Shown here: one piece after another, positions 1,462 to 12,523 of the stretch | Layout of the letters: every line of letters begins with the position of its first letter | Numbering within the stretch: position 1 is the stretch's first letter | Origin: Candidatus Berkelbacteria bacterium | GTDB taxonomy: Bacteria; Patescibacteriota; UBA1384; JAPLVJ01 | Direction of reading: 5' to 3' | Assembly: GCA_026397155.1 (NCBI GenBank) | Contig: JAPLVJ010000041.1 | Span: 1-33,027, forward strand | Length of the DNA stretch: 33,027 nucleotides | Made by a program: the position numbers and the translations under genes | Notes under the pieces: model-generated | The model's input: only the letters and a program-made list of their open reading frames with translations | The model's database searches: none | Told to the model about the DNA's origin: nothing

Positions 1462-2822
1462 TTAAGGTGTGCCTGACCCACTGAGAGTAATTGATTTTAT
1501 ACCGCCGGCATATTCCAAACTTATGGCAGTGCTAGTGGAGTTTGAGGTCGATTGAGGTTTCACGCTCTGGCCATCCACAGAAGCCGTAAAATTTTTACCG
1601 GCAAGCGTTGTCGGTATGGTTATCACGGCATTGCCCGTCGTCTCAGTGGAACCAGCAACTGTGAAGGTAATTGCGTGTGTACTCGAATTAAAAGTCGGAG
1701 CCGAAACAGAGGAGGTGGAGCTTATTGAAACGGGATAACACTGGCCATTTGACGTAACTTTATAATTGTAGGCAACTCTCGGTTTCTTTAAGAAAAGCAC
1801 TCTGGCATTGTCGCCTAGGATGTTCTTGGCAGCATTGCTGTCTAAATCAGAAAGGAGATGTACCCAGCGTCCGACGGAATCAGGCGGGGCATTGTCACTT
1901 ATCTTGCTTGTATAGTTCTGCCATCTTTCTAGACTATTTTTGCCTCCTCCTGCATCTGAAGCGAACATGATGTGGGAATTCCATGTTTCTGCATGCCCTG
2001 AATCCCAGCCGTGTCGAAATATAGATTGGGATATCGCAAGAGGTAGTCATTGAGCGTGGCGCTGTTGATCGTCAGGTTGTTGAACCCCAGATGAGCCCAG
2101 ATGATAATCGCGTCTTTATTGTGATTCAACATTGTTTCAAAGGCAACGTTTGCAGCAGGATCATCGGGTACAAAGTGAAACGAGATCGGGACATGGTACT
2201 TGGCGGATAGATCAACTAACTGAAGCCAGAGCGGATTATCCGGAGAGACATTGATGTCAGGCGTACCCGGAGGGAAATTATTGCCGCCATAGTATCTTAA
2301 GTTAGCTTCGCCAATACCGTAATATTTCCCTGTTTTTAGTTTTTCTTCGGTAGAAGTGACGAATGCTTGGCCTTGCTTGAGCCAGGTAGAGGGTTGTGGC
2401 TGGTCAGGAGTATCAGCAAATATTATAAATCTGCCGGGGTATTGCGATGAGTTTTCAAGCGTTCCTGAATACAAATTTGCCACGCTCACCTTCGCTTTAT
2501 CCATCTCTGAAATTATCTGAGATAAGCTAACTTTGGGCGATATGTGGACATGGGAATCGAAGATATCCATATGTGCCGTGTCAACAGGTGGACTGGTACA
2601 GATATTGTTGGATGTGGATGGGGTATCAGTCGGAGTAGAGGATATTTTACCCGAAGACGATTCTTTAGCTGAGTGCTGATAATACCAAAAAATTCCTCCT
2701 GCTATAACAACTACCGCCCCGATAATAATTACTAAGATGAGTTTTGAAAATCCTTTTTTATGCTGAGCTTGTCGAATGTATTGGTTCATAATTGTATTAT
2801 ACACCCAAGCTATATCTATCAC
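1462..2822 (-). pseudogene. amidohydrolase-family (TIM-barrel metal-dependent hydrolase) gene with N-terminal TM anchor and C-terminal Ig-like tail, split by a frameshift into ORFs 1929..2822 and 1462..1968
   Basis: The upstream ORF has FDSHVHISP (an HxH metal motif) and ...NLYFDTAG. The downstream ORF continues the same family pattern in another frame (..NSHIMFASDAGG.., ..KNILGDNARVLFL). The two ORFs overlap by 40 nt, and the second frame is open upstream through the overlap. The true start is more likely ATG at 2789 (MNQYIRQ...) than GTG at 2822. This could be a real pseudogene or an indel error near gcagaaacatgg. Confidence 0.55.
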
Positions 2823-2913
2823 GAGTGGAAAATCCTGAAGCAGGACATTTAGGGAAAAATTGGGGATTTAGAACAAAGTAGAACCTTGATTGTTTTACAA
2901 TGGCATCTGACGA

Positions 2914-2928
2914 GCCCTCGCAGAGGGC
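2914..2928 (-). other. short GC hairpin about 25 nt downstream of tRNA-Ser (possible transcript-end or processing structure)
   Basis: GCCCTC (2914-2919), loop GCA, GAGGGC (2923-2928). No T-run follows on the minus strand, so it is not a canonical intrinsic terminator. Confidence 0.3.
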
Positions 2929-2952
2929 GAGCCAACAAAGACATTTCCTAAC

Positions 2953-3042
2953 TGGCGGAGAGGGCGGGATTTGAACCCGCGATGCCCTTGCGGACATACT
3001 TGCTTTCCAAGCAAGCGCACTAGGCCACTATGCGACCTCTCC
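2953..3042 (-). tRNA. tRNA-Ser (anticodon GGA), type II with long variable arm and encoded CCA
   Basis: The reverse complement reads GGAGAGGTCGCATAGTGGCCTAGTGCGCTTGCTTGGAAAGCAAGTATGTCCGCAAGGGCATCGCGGGTTCAAATCCCGCCCTCTCCGCCA. The acceptor stem is 7 bp (GGAGAGG/CCTCTCC). The anticodon stem CTTGC/GCAAG carries the loop TTGGAAA. The long extra arm is GTCCGCAAGGGC, and the T-arm has GGTTCAAATCC. Confidence 0.92.
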
Positions 3043-7181: not shown

Positions 7182-7865
7182 TTATGGTCCTTGTGGTTGA
7201 TAGATTAATATCAACTCTTTGTCTGTTTTTTTTCCAATTCGATTAGTGGCCGAAATGGAAACATTATTTGAACCTTCTTCTAATTTGACCTCTTGTTTAA
7301 AGTTACCATCAGCATCAACAGATAGCAATTGCCCATTAATATAAAGGCTTGCTCCTTTTGAGATCTTACCCTCTATTGATACTGGACTTTGCGTTATAGT
7401 TGCTCCGTAATTAGGCGATTCAATTGCAAGATATGGAGCACTAGCAAAACCAGAAACCTGATAACCAATATAAACAAAAACGCCTAGAAAAATGAGAACT
7501 AAAAAAATAATTAAAAGTAGTGTCGGAGTTATATAGATTTTGGGGTACTTTACTTCTTTTTTCCTAAAGGAAAAGCGATTTTTTAAATTATTTTCTATGC
7601 CGCGTTCTCTTTTATATTGAGTGAGTATTGGATCTGCTGGGACTTCTAAAAAATGGCAATAACTTTTTAAAAAACCGGCGGCATAAGTCGAGGCAGAAAA
7701 AACATCCCAATTTTCATTTTCTAGAGCTTTTAGATATTTGATGCGAATTTTCGTAACTTCTTCAACTGCTTCAAAAGTTAAATTCTTTTGCGTTCTGGTT
7801 TTCTTTAGTTGACTGCCGATTGACTCCTTTTCAATCTCTTTTTTGACGATTTTAAATGCGGTCAT
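7182..7865 (-). CDS. RodZ-like helix-turn-helix membrane protein
   Basis: 227 aa. An N-terminal XRE-type HTH (IGSQLKKTRTQKNLTFEAVEEVTKIRIKYLKALE) is followed by a single TM helix (ITPTLLLIIFLVLIFLGVFVYIGY) and a C-terminal beta-rich extracytoplasmic domain. Confidence 0.7.
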   Translation of the reverse strand: MTAFKIVKKEIEKESIGSQLKKTRTQKNLTFEAVEEVTKIRIKYLKALENENWDVFSASTYAAGFLKSYCHFLEVPADPILTQYKRERGIENNLKNRFSFRKKEVKYPKIYITPTLLLIIFLVLIFLGVFVYIGYQVSGFASAPYLAIESPNYGATITQSPVSIEGKISKGASLYINGQLLSVDADGNFKQEVKLEEGSNNVSISATNRIGKKTDKELILIYQPQGP

Positions 7866-9894
7866 GTGGGTTTTCTTCTTGTTTTGAAATCAAAACATCA
7901 CGCGGCTTTGCACCGTCGGCAGGACCAATGACTCTATTTTGCTCTAATAAATCAAGTAATCTGGCCGCTCGAGTATAGCCGATCCTCAATCTACGCTGCA
8001 AAAGTGAAGCCGAAGCCTTCTTGGCTTGAGTAACAACTTCAATAGCTTGATCATACATTTCATCTTTGGGAATTTCACCAAAGCCTGACGCCTGTGGTTT
8101 AAACTCGGTAATTTTTTCTTCGTAAGCAAAGTCAGGTGCTTGTGCCTTGATAAATTCAGCTACTCCTTTTATTTCTTTTTCTTTAATAAGTGGGGCTTGA
8201 ATTCTTCTTGGTTTTGCAATATCAGATGATTGATAAAGCATGTCTCCACAACCAAGTAATTTGTCTGCCCCACCCATATCAAGAATAGTCCTTGAATCAA
8301 CCTGCGAAGCAACTGCAAAGGCAACTCGGGCAGTAATATTTGCTTTAATTAATCCAGTAATAACATCAACAGACGGCCTTTGAGTAGCTACAACAAGATG
8401 TATGCCAGTTGCTCGAGCCATCTGGGCAATCCTGACAATTTGCGCCTCAACTTCTGAGGCAGCCAAGGCCATCAAATCAGCGAGTTCATCTATAATAACA
8501 ACAACATAAGGCATTTTTTCTTGTTGAGATTGGTTATAAACATCAATATCTCGCTTACCAACATCTTGAAAGATCTTATACCTTCTTTCCATTTCAGAAA
8601 CAGTCCACTTTAGAGTAGAGATTATTTTATCATGATCAACAACAACTGGACTCAACAGATTGGGCAGACCTCCATAAGGTGTAAATTCAACTCGCTTAGG
8701 ATCAATAAGAATAAACTTTAATTCATTTGGTTTTTTAGTATATAAAAGACTTAAAATAAGCGAATTAAGAAAGATTGTTTTTCCGCTACCCGTACTACCA
8801 GCAACAAGCAAGTGAGGCATTTTTTCTAGATTAACCACAATCGGATGTCCAGCCACGTCTCTACCTAAAGCAATGGGCAATTTGCATTTACTTTCCTTCC
8901 ACTCATTGGAAAGTAAAACTTCTTTCAGAGTAACGGTTGCTCTTTTTTGATTAGGAACTTCAACGCCAACAAAAGCTTTTCCAGGAATCGGCGCCTCCAT
9001 TCTAATTGGGTGAGCAGCCAAGGCTAAAGATAAATCATTTGCCCTGGCTGTAATTTGAGAAAGTTTTACCCCTTCAGCTGGTTTTAAGGTGTATTGGGTT
9101 ACTGTCGGACCAATGCTAACATCCGACATTGTTACTGAGATGCCAAAATGAGAGAGGGTTTTAGCTATAATACTAAGATTTTTATTAATATCGCCTGAAG
9201 TTGGCGCACCAGAAGGATCTTCTAAAAGACTGATAGGTGGAAGTTGGTATTCGCCGGGCATTAATTTTGATGCGTCCCTTGCTTCTTCTTCACCTTTTCT
9301 CATGTTTAAAACAGGTACATTATTTTTCACTTCTACACCCTGATTCCCTCTGGTTCTTCTAAATAACTGACCAAAAAACGAAATAATTGAAGAAAATTTT
9401 AAAGAAAAAATAACCATAATCGAAATTATTGAAGCGCAGAAAATAATTAAAAATGAAGCCCAAAATCCAAGTAAAGAATAAAATATTGTTGAAACAGAGA
9501 ATCCAACAATCCCACCGCCTTTGCCTGCCTTTGCCACCTCCAATGCCTCTTCCTTACCAATAAATAAATGGAAAAGCGCTGGAAAAAAGAGGAAGAATAA
9601 AGTAACGCCAACCGCAGACCATGTTGACATTGGAAATTTTTCAGGCAAAAAAAGCATTATTCCTAAAACTAAAAGCGCAAGAGAAAATATAATTGCCAAA
9701 AACCCAAAAAGGAGTGTAATTAAGTGAGCTAGAAATTCCCCAAGATGTCCAGCCAACCCCAAAAGAGATAAAATAAAAATAATGCCCAAAACAATCAATA
9801 CAATGGCGATTATTTCACGAGCGGTATCTGGGTCAATTTCCCACTGAACCTTTTTTTTACGTTGATATCTTCTCTTACGCCTTAAAAGAGGCAT
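7852..9894 (-). CDS. ftsK: DNA translocase FtsK/SpoIIIE
   Basis: 680 aa. The N-terminal region is polytopic membrane. The motor domain has Walker A (VAGSTGSGKT) and Walker B (VVIIDELADL). The C-terminal gamma winged helix reads SLLQRRLRIGYTRAARLLDLLEQNRVIGP. Confidence 0.93.
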   Translation of the reverse strand: MPLLRRKRRYQRKKKVQWEIDPDTAREIIAIVLIVLGIIFILSLLGLAGHLGEFLAHLITLLFGFLAIIFSLALLVLGIMLFLPEKFPMSTWSAVGVTLFFLFFPALFHLFIGKEEALEVAKAGKGGGIVGFSVSTIFYSLLGFWASFLIIFCASIISIMVIFSLKFSSIISFFGQLFRRTRGNQGVEVKNNVPVLNMRKGEEEARDASKLMPGEYQLPPISLLEDPSGAPTSGDINKNLSIIAKTLSHFGISVTMSDVSIGPTVTQYTLKPAEGVKLSQITARANDLSLALAAHPIRMEAPIPGKAFVGVEVPNQKRATVTLKEVLLSNEWKESKCKLPIALGRDVAGHPIVVNLEKMPHLLVAGSTGSGKTIFLNSLILSLLYTKKPNELKFILIDPKRVEFTPYGGLPNLLSPVVVDHDKIISTLKWTVSEMERRYKIFQDVGKRDIDVYNQSQQEKMPYVVVIIDELADLMALAASEVEAQIVRIAQMARATGIHLVVATQRPSVDVITGLIKANITARVAFAVASQVDSRTILDMGGADKLLGCGDMLYQSSDIAKPRRIQAPLIKEKEIKGVAEFIKAQAPDFAYEEKITEFKPQASGFGEIPKDEMYDQAIEVVTQAKKASASLLQRRLRIGYTRAARLLDLLEQNRVIGPADGAKPRDVLISKQEENPHDRI

Positions 9895-10081
9895 TCTTGT
9901 CCCTCTTTTTTATTTTAGCACTTTTTTGAGGAAAATACAGAAATTAGGTTTGTTGTTAAACGAAACGAACGGTATTTGCATGACTGGCTTACTTCCTCTA
10001 AAATAAGGCTACTCCACGTCATCCAGGTAACAGTGGAGGCAACATGGTTGATAAGGAAACCGGATCGAAGGAGGTGCTTAT

Positions 10082-10711
10082 ATGATACAGATTGCAGTTA
10101 TGGTCTCGGGGCATGGCCGAGGGAGCAATCTTCAGGCGATCATTGATGCCTGCAAAGAGAATCGGATTAACGGTGGGGTCATCGTGGTCATCGGCGTGAA
10201 GGATGACGCGCCTGCGATGGAACGCGCCCGTAGCCAGGGCATTTCGGCGATCGAAGTGCGCCCCAAGGCATTCGACTCCGACGAGGCGTACGGCCAAGCT
10301 GTGCTCGATGTCCTTGCCGAGCACAAGGCCGATCTCGTGTGCCTCGCCGGGTACATGCGCATCCTCCCTTCCAACATCGTGAGTGCGTACCGGTGGCGCA
10401 TCATGAACATCCATCCGGCGCTGATACCGCTCTTCTGCGGGAAGGGGATGTTCGGCGAACACGTCCATCAGGCGGCGCTCGATTACGGGGTGAAGGTCTC
10501 GGGCTGCACGGTCCATTTCGTGGACGAGGAATACGACACCGGCCCCATCATCATCCAGAAAACCGTGCCTGTCGAGGAGGGCGACACAGCCGAGACCCTG
10601 GCCGCCCGCGTGCTCATTCAAGAGCACAAGGCGTACCCCGAGGCGATCCAGCTCTTCTCCCAGGGCCGCTTATCGGTCGAGGGTCGCGTGGTTCACATTC
10701 ACCCAAAGTAG
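10082..10711 (+). CDS. purN: phosphoribosylglycinamide formyltransferase (GAR transformylase)
   Basis: 209 aa with canonical PurN motifs: VMVSGHGRGSNLQAIID, NIHPALIP and GCTVHFVDEEYDTGPIIIQ. A GGAGG SD lies 7 nt upstream of the ATG. The G+C content is far above the rest of the window. Antisense and alternate-frame ORFs over it are GC-driven artefacts. Confidence 0.9.
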   Translation: MIQIAVMVSGHGRGSNLQAIIDACKENRINGGVIVVIGVKDDAPAMERARSQGISAIEVRPKAFDSDEAYGQAVLDVLAEHKADLVCLAGYMRILPSNIVSAYRWRIMNIHPALIPLFCGKGMFGEHVHQAALDYGVKVSGCTVHFVDEEYDTGPIIIQKTVPVEEGDTAETLAARVLIQEHKAYPEAIQLFSQGRLSVEGRVVHIHPK

Positions 10712-10720
10712 CAGCCATAA

Positions 10721-10761
10721 GGCTCAGGAACTAATAGGTCTTTATCCTGGGCCACTTTTTT
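10721..10761 (+). terminator. putative intrinsic terminator of purN
   Basis: The stem GGCTCAGGA (10721-10729) pairs with TCCTGGGCC (10745-10753), with one G.U pair. The loop is 15 nt, and TTTTTT follows at 10756-10761. Confidence 0.5.
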
Positions 10762-10808
10762 ATCTACAAAATGAAATTGAAATTATAGCTCAACAATCAA
10801 CAATGAAC

Positions 10809-10833
10809 CACTAACACCTACGAGGTGTTAGTG
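10809..10833 (-). terminator. putative terminator hairpin downstream of rnj
   Basis: A perfect 10-bp stem: CACTAACACC, loop tacga, GGTGTTAGTG. It lies 20 nt past the rnj stop. On the minus strand it is followed by a U-rich but interrupted tract (guucauuguugauuguug). Confidence 0.45.
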
Positions 10834-10852
10834 AGGTTAGTTCAGTTGGTCT

Positions 10853-12523
10853 TCATAACTCGATTATTACAGGTATCACCATAGGGCGACGTTCGGTATT
10901 TTTGTAAAGAAATTCGCCCATCTCGTCTCTCATTGATCTTTTGATGTAGTCCAGATCAAGTGGGTAGCGATTATTATGGCGTGAGAACATTCTTTTAATT
11001 TCGGCACGCGCTCTTTGAATTAAATCCTCTGATTCTCGCATATATACAAATCCACGCGAGATAATATCTGGGGATGTAATAATGCGGCCAGTTTTTTTAT
11101 CAATAGTTAAAATTACAACAAAAATTCCGTCTTTGGCCATCACCTGTCGGTCACGCAAGACAATCTGGCCAATATCCCCGACTCCAAGGCCATCAACCAA
11201 AACATAAGAAGCATTGACTCTGTCGCTGGATATTCTACCCTTACCCCTTTCAAATTCAATTGTCTGACCATTTTCAATAACCAGGATCCTCTCTCTTGGA
11301 ATACCCATTTCTTGGCCAATTTGGGCAAGGTGGATTAACATATGATACTCACCATGAATTGGGATAAGGTACTTTGGTTTGATCAATTTAATCATTTCTT
11401 TCAAATCCTCAACTTTAGCATGGCCTGATTCATGAATTCCGAGCTCTTTACGATAAATACAATCCGCTCCAAGACGATAAAGATTATCAATTGTGTTATA
11501 ACTTGCCCTTTCATTACCAGGAATAACCGAAGCGGAAATTAGTACTGTATCGCCTTCTTTGATTTTAACTTGCTTGTGTTCTCCGCTAGCCATACGCACC
11601 AAGGCAGACATTTCTTCTCCTTGGCTCCCAGTACAAAGAATAACTACCTCATTATCAGGTAAATGATTAATCTTGCGAATATCCTGCAAAACACCTTGAG
11701 GAATTTTTAAATAGCCGAGCCTACTGGCCATCTCAATATTTTTTTCCATAGAAAAACCAGCAACGGCTACTTTTCTTCTATACTTTACAGCGGCGTTAAA
11801 AACAAGCTGAACTCGAGAAATCAAAGATGCAAAGGAGGTAATCACAAGACGCCCCTTTGTTGCTCTAAAAATACCTTCTATTGCCTTGCCCACCTCTTGC
11901 TCTGAAATAGCATAACCTGGTACTTCTGCATTGGTTGAATCAGAAAGAAGTCCCAAAACTCCCCTTCTGCTATAACCGGCTAATTTGCTTAAATCAGTCG
12001 GGTCCTCAAAAACAGGCGTTTTATCAAATTTAAAATCTCCAGTATGAACAAATAAACCAACCGGCGTCTCAATTGCCAGTCCAACACTGTCAGGTATTGA
12101 GTGAGTAACCCTAAAAAATTCGATTTTAAAAACACCTAGATGCAAAATATCACCTGCTTTTATCAATCTGATTTTTGGATTTGCAATTGAAAACTCTTTC
12201 ATTTTGACATCTACTAAACCAGCCGTAAGCTTGGTCGCAAAAATAGGTACACCCAGTTTTGGCCAAATATAAGGCAGACCACCCGTGTGATCTTCGTGTC
12301 CATGGGTGATAATAATTCCCCTAATCCTATGCTTGTTTGCTAATAAATAATCAATATTAGGAATAACAAAATCTATTCCCAAAAATTCTTGGCCAGGAAA
12401 CATAATTCCGCAGTCAACTAAAATAATGTCCTGACCGTACTCGTAGATCATCATGTTTTTACCAACTTCCCCCAAGCCACCAAGAGGAATGATTTTTAGT
12501 TTTGGATAGAATTTTTTAACCAT
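10853..12523 (-). CDS. rnj: ribonuclease J
   Basis: 556 aa. The metallo-beta-lactamase motif HGHEDHTGG is present. The beta-CASP region and the typical RNase J C-terminal domain are present. The N-terminus (KIIPLGGLGEVGKNM) is characteristic. Confidence 0.92.
   Translation of the reverse strand: MVKKFYPKLKIIPLGGLGEVGKNMMIYEYGQDIILVDCGIMFPGQEFLGIDFVIPNIDYLLANKHRIRGIIITHGHEDHTGGLPYIWPKLGVPIFATKLTAGLVDVKMKEFSIANPKIRLIKAGDILHLGVFKIEFFRVTHSIPDSVGLAIETPVGLFVHTGDFKFDKTPVFEDPTDLSKLAGYSRRGVLGLLSDSTNAEVPGYAISEQEVGKAIEGIFRATKGRLVITSFASLISRVQLVFNAAVKYRRKVAVAGFSMEKNIEMASRLGYLKIPQGVLQDIRKINHLPDNEVVILCTGSQGEEMSALVRMASGEHKQVKIKEGDTVLISASVIPGNERASYNTIDNLYRLGADCIYRKELGIHESGHAKVEDLKEMIKLIKPKYLIPIHGEYHMLIHLAQIGQEMGIPRERILVIENGQTIEFERGKGRISSDRVNASYVLVDGLGVGDIGQIVLRDRQVMAKDGIFVVILTIDKKTGRIITSPDIISRGFVYMRESEDLIQRARAEIKRMFSRHNNRYPLDLDYIKRSMRDEMGEFLYKNTERRPMVIPVIIEL

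Follow-up and report, generated by a model that had tools for sequence, protein, structure and literature searches.

A GC-rich purN gene between ftsK and rnj of a Berkelbacteria-like bacterium: probable recent transfer from an Armatimonadota-labelled clade

The stretch of DNA analysed here (the window; 33,027 nt) carries a lone gene for phosphoribosylglycinamide (GAR) formyltransferase, purN, in a short GC-rich segment between ftsK and rnj. Very probably it was acquired recently, as a single unameliorated gene, from a high-GC, Armatimonadota-labelled clade, presumably by illegitimate recombination. Three independent lines of evidence support a recent transfer, namely the unameliorated composition of the segment, the absence of the gene from the corresponding site in relatives, and a phylogeny in which the window's PurN is nested among Armatimonadota. 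The original prediction, made from the sequence alone, had listed recent acquisition from a high-GC donor as one of several possibilities, and these data favour it.

A compositional island with a single gene

In reasoning of the Lawrence-Ochman type, transferred genes or islands that have not ameliorated display deviant GC content, GC3 and oligonucleotide usage. A single-gene island of ~0.8 kb and ~60% G+C had been predicted by eye, and windowed GC bears this out. In 400-nt windows, G+C is 0.57-0.63 across 10000-10800 and 0.35-0.40 on either flank, setting an island of 57-63% G+C against a contig background of 33-43%. The island is unique within the window, as 600-nt bins over the whole 33 kb have a G+C of at most 0.47 everywhere outside it. 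Its left edge was placed where 50-nt GC climbs from ~0.3-0.4 to at least 0.5, and its right edge at the last T of the terminator T-run. The features of the region are as follows:

7852..9894, minus strand: ftsK, 680 aa, the left flank (Pfam FtsK_4TM, FtsK_alpha, FtsK_SpoIIIE, FtsK_gamma)
9932..9959, minus strand: weak promoter-like match TTAACA-16-TATTTT upstream of ftsK (9/12 matches)
9975..10004, plus strand: sigma-70-like promoter match TTTGCA-18-TAAAAT (9/12 consensus matches only)
~10008..10761, no strand: segment of foreign composition (~0.75 kb; 50-nt GC scan, extent approximate)
10070..10074, plus strand: Shine-Dalgarno sequence GGAGG, 7 nt 5' of the purN ATG (read from the sequence)
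10082..10711, plus strand: purN, GAR formyltransferase, 209 aa, 60.6% GC (TIGR00639, PF00551)
10721..10761, plus strand: intrinsic-terminator-like hairpin and T6, with a 9-bp stem GGCTCAGGA/TCCTGGGCC, 10 nt past the purN stop
10808..10834, minus strand: terminator-like hairpin 3' of rnj, with perfect 11-nt arms and a 3-nt loop
10853..12523, minus strand: rnj, RNase J, 556 aa, the right flank (Pfam RNase_J_b_CASP, RNase_J_C, Lactamase_B, RMMBL)

Tetranucleotide and codon-position usage, which the original prediction had proposed as checks, make purN a clear outlier. In tetranucleotide L1 distance, the island stands 0.893 away from the remainder of the contig; other 630-nt windows lie at 0.371 +/- 0.041 (at most 0.515), a separation of ~12 SD. 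The GC3 of purN is 0.786 (78.6%), exceeding that of the neighbouring genes by 45-55 points; 22 of the 24 other listed ORFs lie at 0.215-0.342, the remaining two (0.44-0.45) being those at 1462-2822.

As had been described, the island contains one gene, purN, transcribed from the plus strand amid ftsK and rnj on the minus strand. The long alternate-frame ORFs noted at 10019-10627 (minus strand) and 10339-10734 (plus strand) are also present, together with a further one at 10132-10410 (minus strand). None of the three matched a Pfam family, which is consistent with their being by-products of GC-rich DNA; they were dropped as genuine genes, the conserved frame being that of PurN.

A second, milder segment is found elsewhere in the window, where the ORFs at 1462-1968 and 1929-2822 (both minus strand) have a GC content of 44-47% and a GC3 of 0.44-0.45, against 0.22-0.34 for the host. 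Neither gave a significant match in Pfam, NCBIfam or PDB. They adjoin a tRNA-Ser(GGA) gene at 2953-3042 (minus strand), and 1462-3042 may be another foreign segment, milder or older, situated at a tRNA.

The PurN protein and its nearest relatives

The identification of the gene product as a textbook GAR transformylase holds. It scores 214.2 bits against TIGR00639, the NCBIfam PurN equivalog (cut-off 150.1), and the sister families PurU (92-94 bits) and Fmt (55 bits) both fall far under their own cut-offs on the same protein. Formyl_trans_N (PF00551; E = 1.3e-54, residues 3-189) is the sole Pfam domain found, with neither the C-terminal domain of Fmt/ArnA nor the ACT domain of PurU. PurN chains in the PDB matched at 8.5e-59 to 4e-47 (3auf, 8.5e-59; E. 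coli 2gar, 8e-48). In the alignment to 2gar, the catalytic residues Asn106, His108 and Asp144 (E. coli numbering) are all retained: RIMNIHPALIP lies over E. coli LLNIHPSLLP, and the Asp of DEEYDTGP over DELDGGP. Judged by this alignment, purN encodes a complete, catalytically intact and apparently functional GAR formyltransferase, which would convert 10-formyl-THF and GAR to fGAR and THF.

The E. coli (1c2t/2gar) and Symbiobacterium toebii (3auf) enzymes have in common with the window protein a single ~200-aa Formyl_trans_N domain and the motifs NIHP(A/S)L(I/L)P and VHFV..(E)xD.GP, with the catalytic Asn, His and Asp. Relative to these two enzymes, five residues are inserted in the window's PurN (GKGMFGEH region, residues ~117-124, window 10430-10455). 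This insertion is shared with a close homologue of the donor-type clade, L049, and may be a signature of that clade. The window copy also differs from known PurN in its setting, as a solitary gene with no pur operon around it, in a host lineage from which the pathway is usually missing.

The nearest PurN proteins are 80-85% identical in amino acids and 73-76% in nucleotides, and lie on contigs of ~50-65% GC. The original prediction had suggested that the taxonomy of the best matches be recorded; among the best 120, all named ones are Armatimonadota and none is a named member of the Patescibacteria. One cluster (P0003, 82%) includes proteins of NCBI Armatimonadota MAGs on contigs of 182-358 kb. 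In a neighbour-joining tree, the window's PurN is nested within an Armatimonadota-labelled clade beside P0003, P0029, P0005 and P0006. On the sequences compared, the phylogeny of PurN is thus in conflict with that of its host.

P0005 and P0004, the nearest homologues for which neighbouring genes were read (on contigs of 51% and 60% GC), carry purN at the end of a purD-purE-purB-purF-purM-purN or purB-purF-purM-purN operon of native GC. At the DNA level, homology to donor-type relatives is confined to 10091-10708, with blastn identities of 75.7% over 10091-10696 (L047/L048) and 72.7% over 10091-10708 (L041/L042). No remnant of purM was found upstream of the window's purN, either by tblastn (E up to 10) or in a three-frame translation. 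As the best DNA identity is ~76% and the true donor is unsampled, we infer the direction and source of the transfer from composition and phylogeny.

Of 80 metagenome loci carrying PurN relatives, none holds a second high-GC purN with low-GC flanks, or a purN linked to rnj or ftsK, and the homologues that are at least 72% identical all have flanks matching the GC of the gene. L049 (84% identical, 49% GC) was considered as a second island and rejected, since it lies on a mid-GC contig with matching flanks and outside a CPR context. GC3 in the donor clade spans 0.47-0.88 and is mostly 0.75-0.88; the window's purN falls inside this range, so that no amelioration is detectable.

Donor-type purN contigs and members of the window's CPR clade were found together in three metagenomes: L041/L133 in ENA ERZ27247220, L042/L044 in JGI 3300031463 and L052/L046 in JGI 3300005573. 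This co-occurrence fits a shared habitat or a physical association.

The rnj-ftsK site, the insertion and its route

Apart from purN, the window reads as a stretch of housekeeping genes. It encodes a PEP-utilising enzyme, recX, recA, an HTH_25 protein, ftsK, rnj, pnp, S15, a DHH phosphoesterase, S20, signal peptidase, DUF2207, holA, polA, murE, a FemAB-family protein, tsaD, valS, a TPR protein and a 952-aa protein without a family. The best named relatives of its RNase J (49-60% identity) are Patescibacteria, Berkelbacteria and Kazan MAGs, and the relatives' loci preserve the order dhh-S15-pnp-rnj-ftsK-HTH25-recA-recX-ppdk. By these genes, the recipient is a Berkelbacteria-like bacterium of the Patescibacteria (CPR).

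A protein search with RNase J uncovered a closer clade at 74-83% identity. The site was compared in the contigs of seven of these proteins. Six relatives, with an RNase J 79-83% identical, have data at the site, L129/L130 being left out because their contigs stop just past rnj:

L043, RNase J 83%: ftsK begins ~20 nt past rnj; co-directional, no purN
L131/L132, RNase J 82%: rnj-ftsK spacer ~70-190 nt; co-directional, no purN
L044/L045, RNase J 81%: rnj-ftsK spacer ~70-190 nt; co-directional, no purN
L046, RNase J 81%: rnj-ftsK spacer ~70-190 nt; co-directional, no purN
L133, RNase J 80%: rnj-ftsK spacer ~70-190 nt; co-directional, no purN
L134, RNase J 79%: rnj-ftsK spacer ~70-190 nt; co-directional, no purN

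The synteny comparison that had been suggested therefore returns ftsK-rnj adjacency without purN in 6/6 closest relatives with data, indicating that adjacency is the ancestral state of the clade. By this comparison of gene order, the window's purN is a lineage-specific insertion, reversed in strand, that parts rnj and ftsK. It might be argued that purN is instead an ancient resident, kept GC-rich for some gene-specific reason, for which its presence alone would speak. Against this, it is missing between rnj and ftsK in the six close relatives and was likewise found at none of 40 genome loci from more distant Patescibacteria, its GC3 stands 45-55 points over that of its neighbours, and it nests in an Armatimonadota-labelled clade. 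The empty sites effectively refute ancient residence, to which we attach a negligible probability. Because RNase J identity to the closest relatives is just 79-83%, what bounds ‘recent’ is the missing amelioration and not a comparison with sister strains.

In the distant Patescibacteria, the rnj-ftsK spacer is 0.26-5.6 kb long and contains unrelated cargo of host-like GC, never purN (loci L001, L002, L005, L009, L011, L012, L014, L016, L017, L031 and L036). This cargo comprises 70-75-aa ORFs that by eye resemble LuxR-type HTH proteins, plus large proteins. Variation at this site recurs across the wider group, but in the window's clade the spacer is tight (~20-190 nt). The relatives also vary within ftsK itself: L131 (4404-7793) and L132 (2829-6218) encode an FtsK of 1129 aa with an intein (Intein_splicing and LAGLIDADG_3) inside the FtsK_SpoIIIE motor domain. 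The window FtsK (680 aa), which is 66-71% identical to those of relatives, has no intein, unlike L131/L132.

The strong Shine-Dalgarno sequence and the hairpin with T6 that had been attributed to purN are both present. The hairpin folds at -17.7 kcal/mol (z -2.25) and was also picked up by a terminator scan. Upstream of the gene, the TTTGCA-18-TAAAAT match sits in AT-rich, host-like sequence. The stops of purN and rnj are 141 nt apart, and the hairpin on the rnj side, which has no counterpart in L043, the closest relative with the site, folds at -21.2 kcal/mol (z -3.3) and is convergent with the purN terminator; the two 3' hairpins are adequately explained as convergent terminators. On the other side, 187 nt with weak divergent promoter-like matches separate the starts of ftsK and purN. 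Separation from rnj would leave ftsK in need of its own promoter, a role that TTAACA-16-TATTTT may fill. A 12-nt word at 10782-10793 (minus strand), TTGAGCTATAAT, lies ~60 nt downstream of the rnj stop and equals the last rnj codons and stop of L043. The match could be accidental, or the word could be left over from an earlier 3' end of rnj.

The proposed course of events is as follows. The source would be a purB-purF-purM-purN-type operon of an Armatimonadota-labelled bacterium, from which a fragment of ~0.75 kb would have been captured, comprising purN, ~70 nt of 5' leader with the Shine-Dalgarno sequence and probably the terminator. Foreign DNA would have been taken up and then joined by illegitimate (end-joining or microhomology) recombination, the fragment entering the short rnj-ftsK spacer in opposite orientation and splitting a tight, co-directional pair.

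No significant target duplication or inverted repeat was found at the island edges. The longest flanking repeat is the 9-nt word CACTTTTTT at 9919-9927 and 10753-10761, within a 19-nt match of 79%; it was rejected, as 12% of Markov resamples share a word of at least 9 nt. The window ORFs scanned against Pfam include no integrase, transposase or recombinase, in agreement with the original prediction, which had likewise seen no convincing repeats or recombinase. There is no tRNA at the insertion site, and 2.9 million viral contigs contain no PurN relative, so a phage origin was dropped. With no significant repeats, recombinase, tRNA or phage link, illegitimate recombination is the most economical route to propose for an insertion that is probably recent.

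These same findings weigh against purN being cargo of a mobile element, such as an integron cassette, a transposon, or a phage or ICE remnant. Its cassette-like size and single-gene layout would suit such an origin, as would the variability of the rnj-ftsK spacer in distant Patescibacteria, but the close homologues whose neighbours were read lie in a chromosomal pur operon, with no element. An integron cassette was considered specifically and dropped: heptamers resembling GTTRRRY/RYYYAAC can be picked out by eye close to the edges, but chance alone would produce them, and no integrase is among the ORFs scanned against Pfam. Mobile cargo is accordingly very improbable. What classical compositional islands have in common with the present one is deviant composition, absence from relatives at a conserved site and a phylogeny that points to another phylum. 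The purN islet differs in being only ~0.75 kb long, with one gene and without tRNA, integrase or flanking repeats, and in having a reduced-genome CPR bacterium as its recipient.

A chimeric join, by which a high-GC piece from the same metagenome was mis-spliced into a CPR contig, had also been raised at the outset. It would account for the lack of any amelioration in purN, and donor-type organisms do occur in the same samples as CPR relatives. The public data that contain the window sequence are two freshwater-sediment runs, available as Logan unitigs only, at 2-4x and with about one third of the host words. At this depth, neither 9747-10333 nor 10606-10717 is spanned in host-like fashion by any unitig at 95% or 85% likeness, so that neither junction is bridged and the physical linkage of purN to the host is given by the assembly alone. 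One unitig of host-like depth (X1, 289 nt, 10718-11006) starts at the island edge, 7 nt after the purN stop, which could reflect a coverage gap or a de Bruijn branch from coexisting filled and empty sites. A second (X2, 238 nt, 2x), also of host-like depth, follows the window's purN for ~165 nt without any listed difference before diverging, which would speak against a chimera; other unitigs in X1 and X2, at 90-95% identity, indicate that close purN variants are present in that sediment. Taken together, the unitigs argue neither for the join nor against it.

The structure of the locus also argues against mis-assembly. Two mis-joins would be required, the second re-entering the same genome at the syntenic position, and between them they would have to deliver into a spacer exactly one whole, intact gene, with its Shine-Dalgarno sequence and terminator and without a piece of purM. 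No long words are apparent that a 60% GC operon would share with an AT-rich spacer, and both flanks are host-like with their own terminator- and promoter-like signals. On these structural grounds a chimera is unlikely, and we consider recent transfer of a real gene the better account of the locus.

Purine synthesis and the place of a lone purN

The substrate of PurN, GAR, comes only from the upstream pathway, and a lone PurN depends on it. GAR is a phosphorylated intermediate, and its import is unlikely. No other pur or folate gene was found among the annotated ORFs of the 33-kb window, consistent with the earlier reading, in which no further purine-pathway gene had been seen. The premise that lineages of this kind usually lack nucleotide synthesis also agrees with the literature. 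CPR bacteria are often unable to make nucleotides (PMC7304191); there are exceptions in which nucleotide synthesis occurs, such as Peribacteria (PMC4736985), and a Parcubacterium has been described with few purine enzymes (PMC5220378).

The transfer may have been real and the gene nonetheless kept for use, either together with other acquired pur genes elsewhere in the genome or in another role as a formyltransferase or 10-formyl-THF consumer. In keeping with such recruitment, the reading frame and the catalytic Asn-His-Asp are intact, a strong Shine-Dalgarno sequence, a promoter-like site and a terminator are in place, and nucleotide synthesis does occur in some CPR lineages (PMC4736985). A very young insert, however, would be expected to be intact anyway. 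The 33 kb without other pur or folate genes, the relatives without purN, the extremely foreign codon usage of the gene and, from general biochemistry, the improbability of GAR import all tell against it, and recruitment remains a tentative and rather doubtful reading. On balance, a young and as yet undecayed passenger seems somewhat likelier than a component of a working pathway.

A broader proposal is that purN represents a step in the piecemeal re-acquisition of purine synthesis, or a host-derived marker of an episymbiosis between Berkelbacteria-like bacteria and Armatimonadota. We regard this as a long shot. Were the episymbiotic reading true, the donor clade would name an otherwise unknown host, and if acquired pur genes were present elsewhere in the genome, they would bear on the reversibility of CPR auxotrophies.

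The case may be set beside lateral transfer into CPR metabolism as treated by Jaffe et al. 2020 (PMC7304191), with which it has in common a patchy metabolic gene obtained from non-CPR bacteria. The subject of that study is glycolysis, the pentose phosphate pathway and nucleotide salvage, and the words ‘purine’ and ‘formyl’ are absent from it. purN differs from the cases described there in being one very young, unameliorated gene, seen at its insertion site.

As the evidence stands, the case is that of a textbook enzyme passed on by horizontal transfer, well documented but ordinary, an event of a known kind that involves no new system. Old, ameliorated genes are the usual basis for recognising transfers into CPR genomes. 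Here, that of purN appears to have been caught fresh, with the empty site visible in relatives and the donor clade identifiable. It offers a possible clue to the organisms that live with this uncultured lineage, and illustrates concretely how single foreign genes may enter a reduced genome without the machinery of mobile elements.
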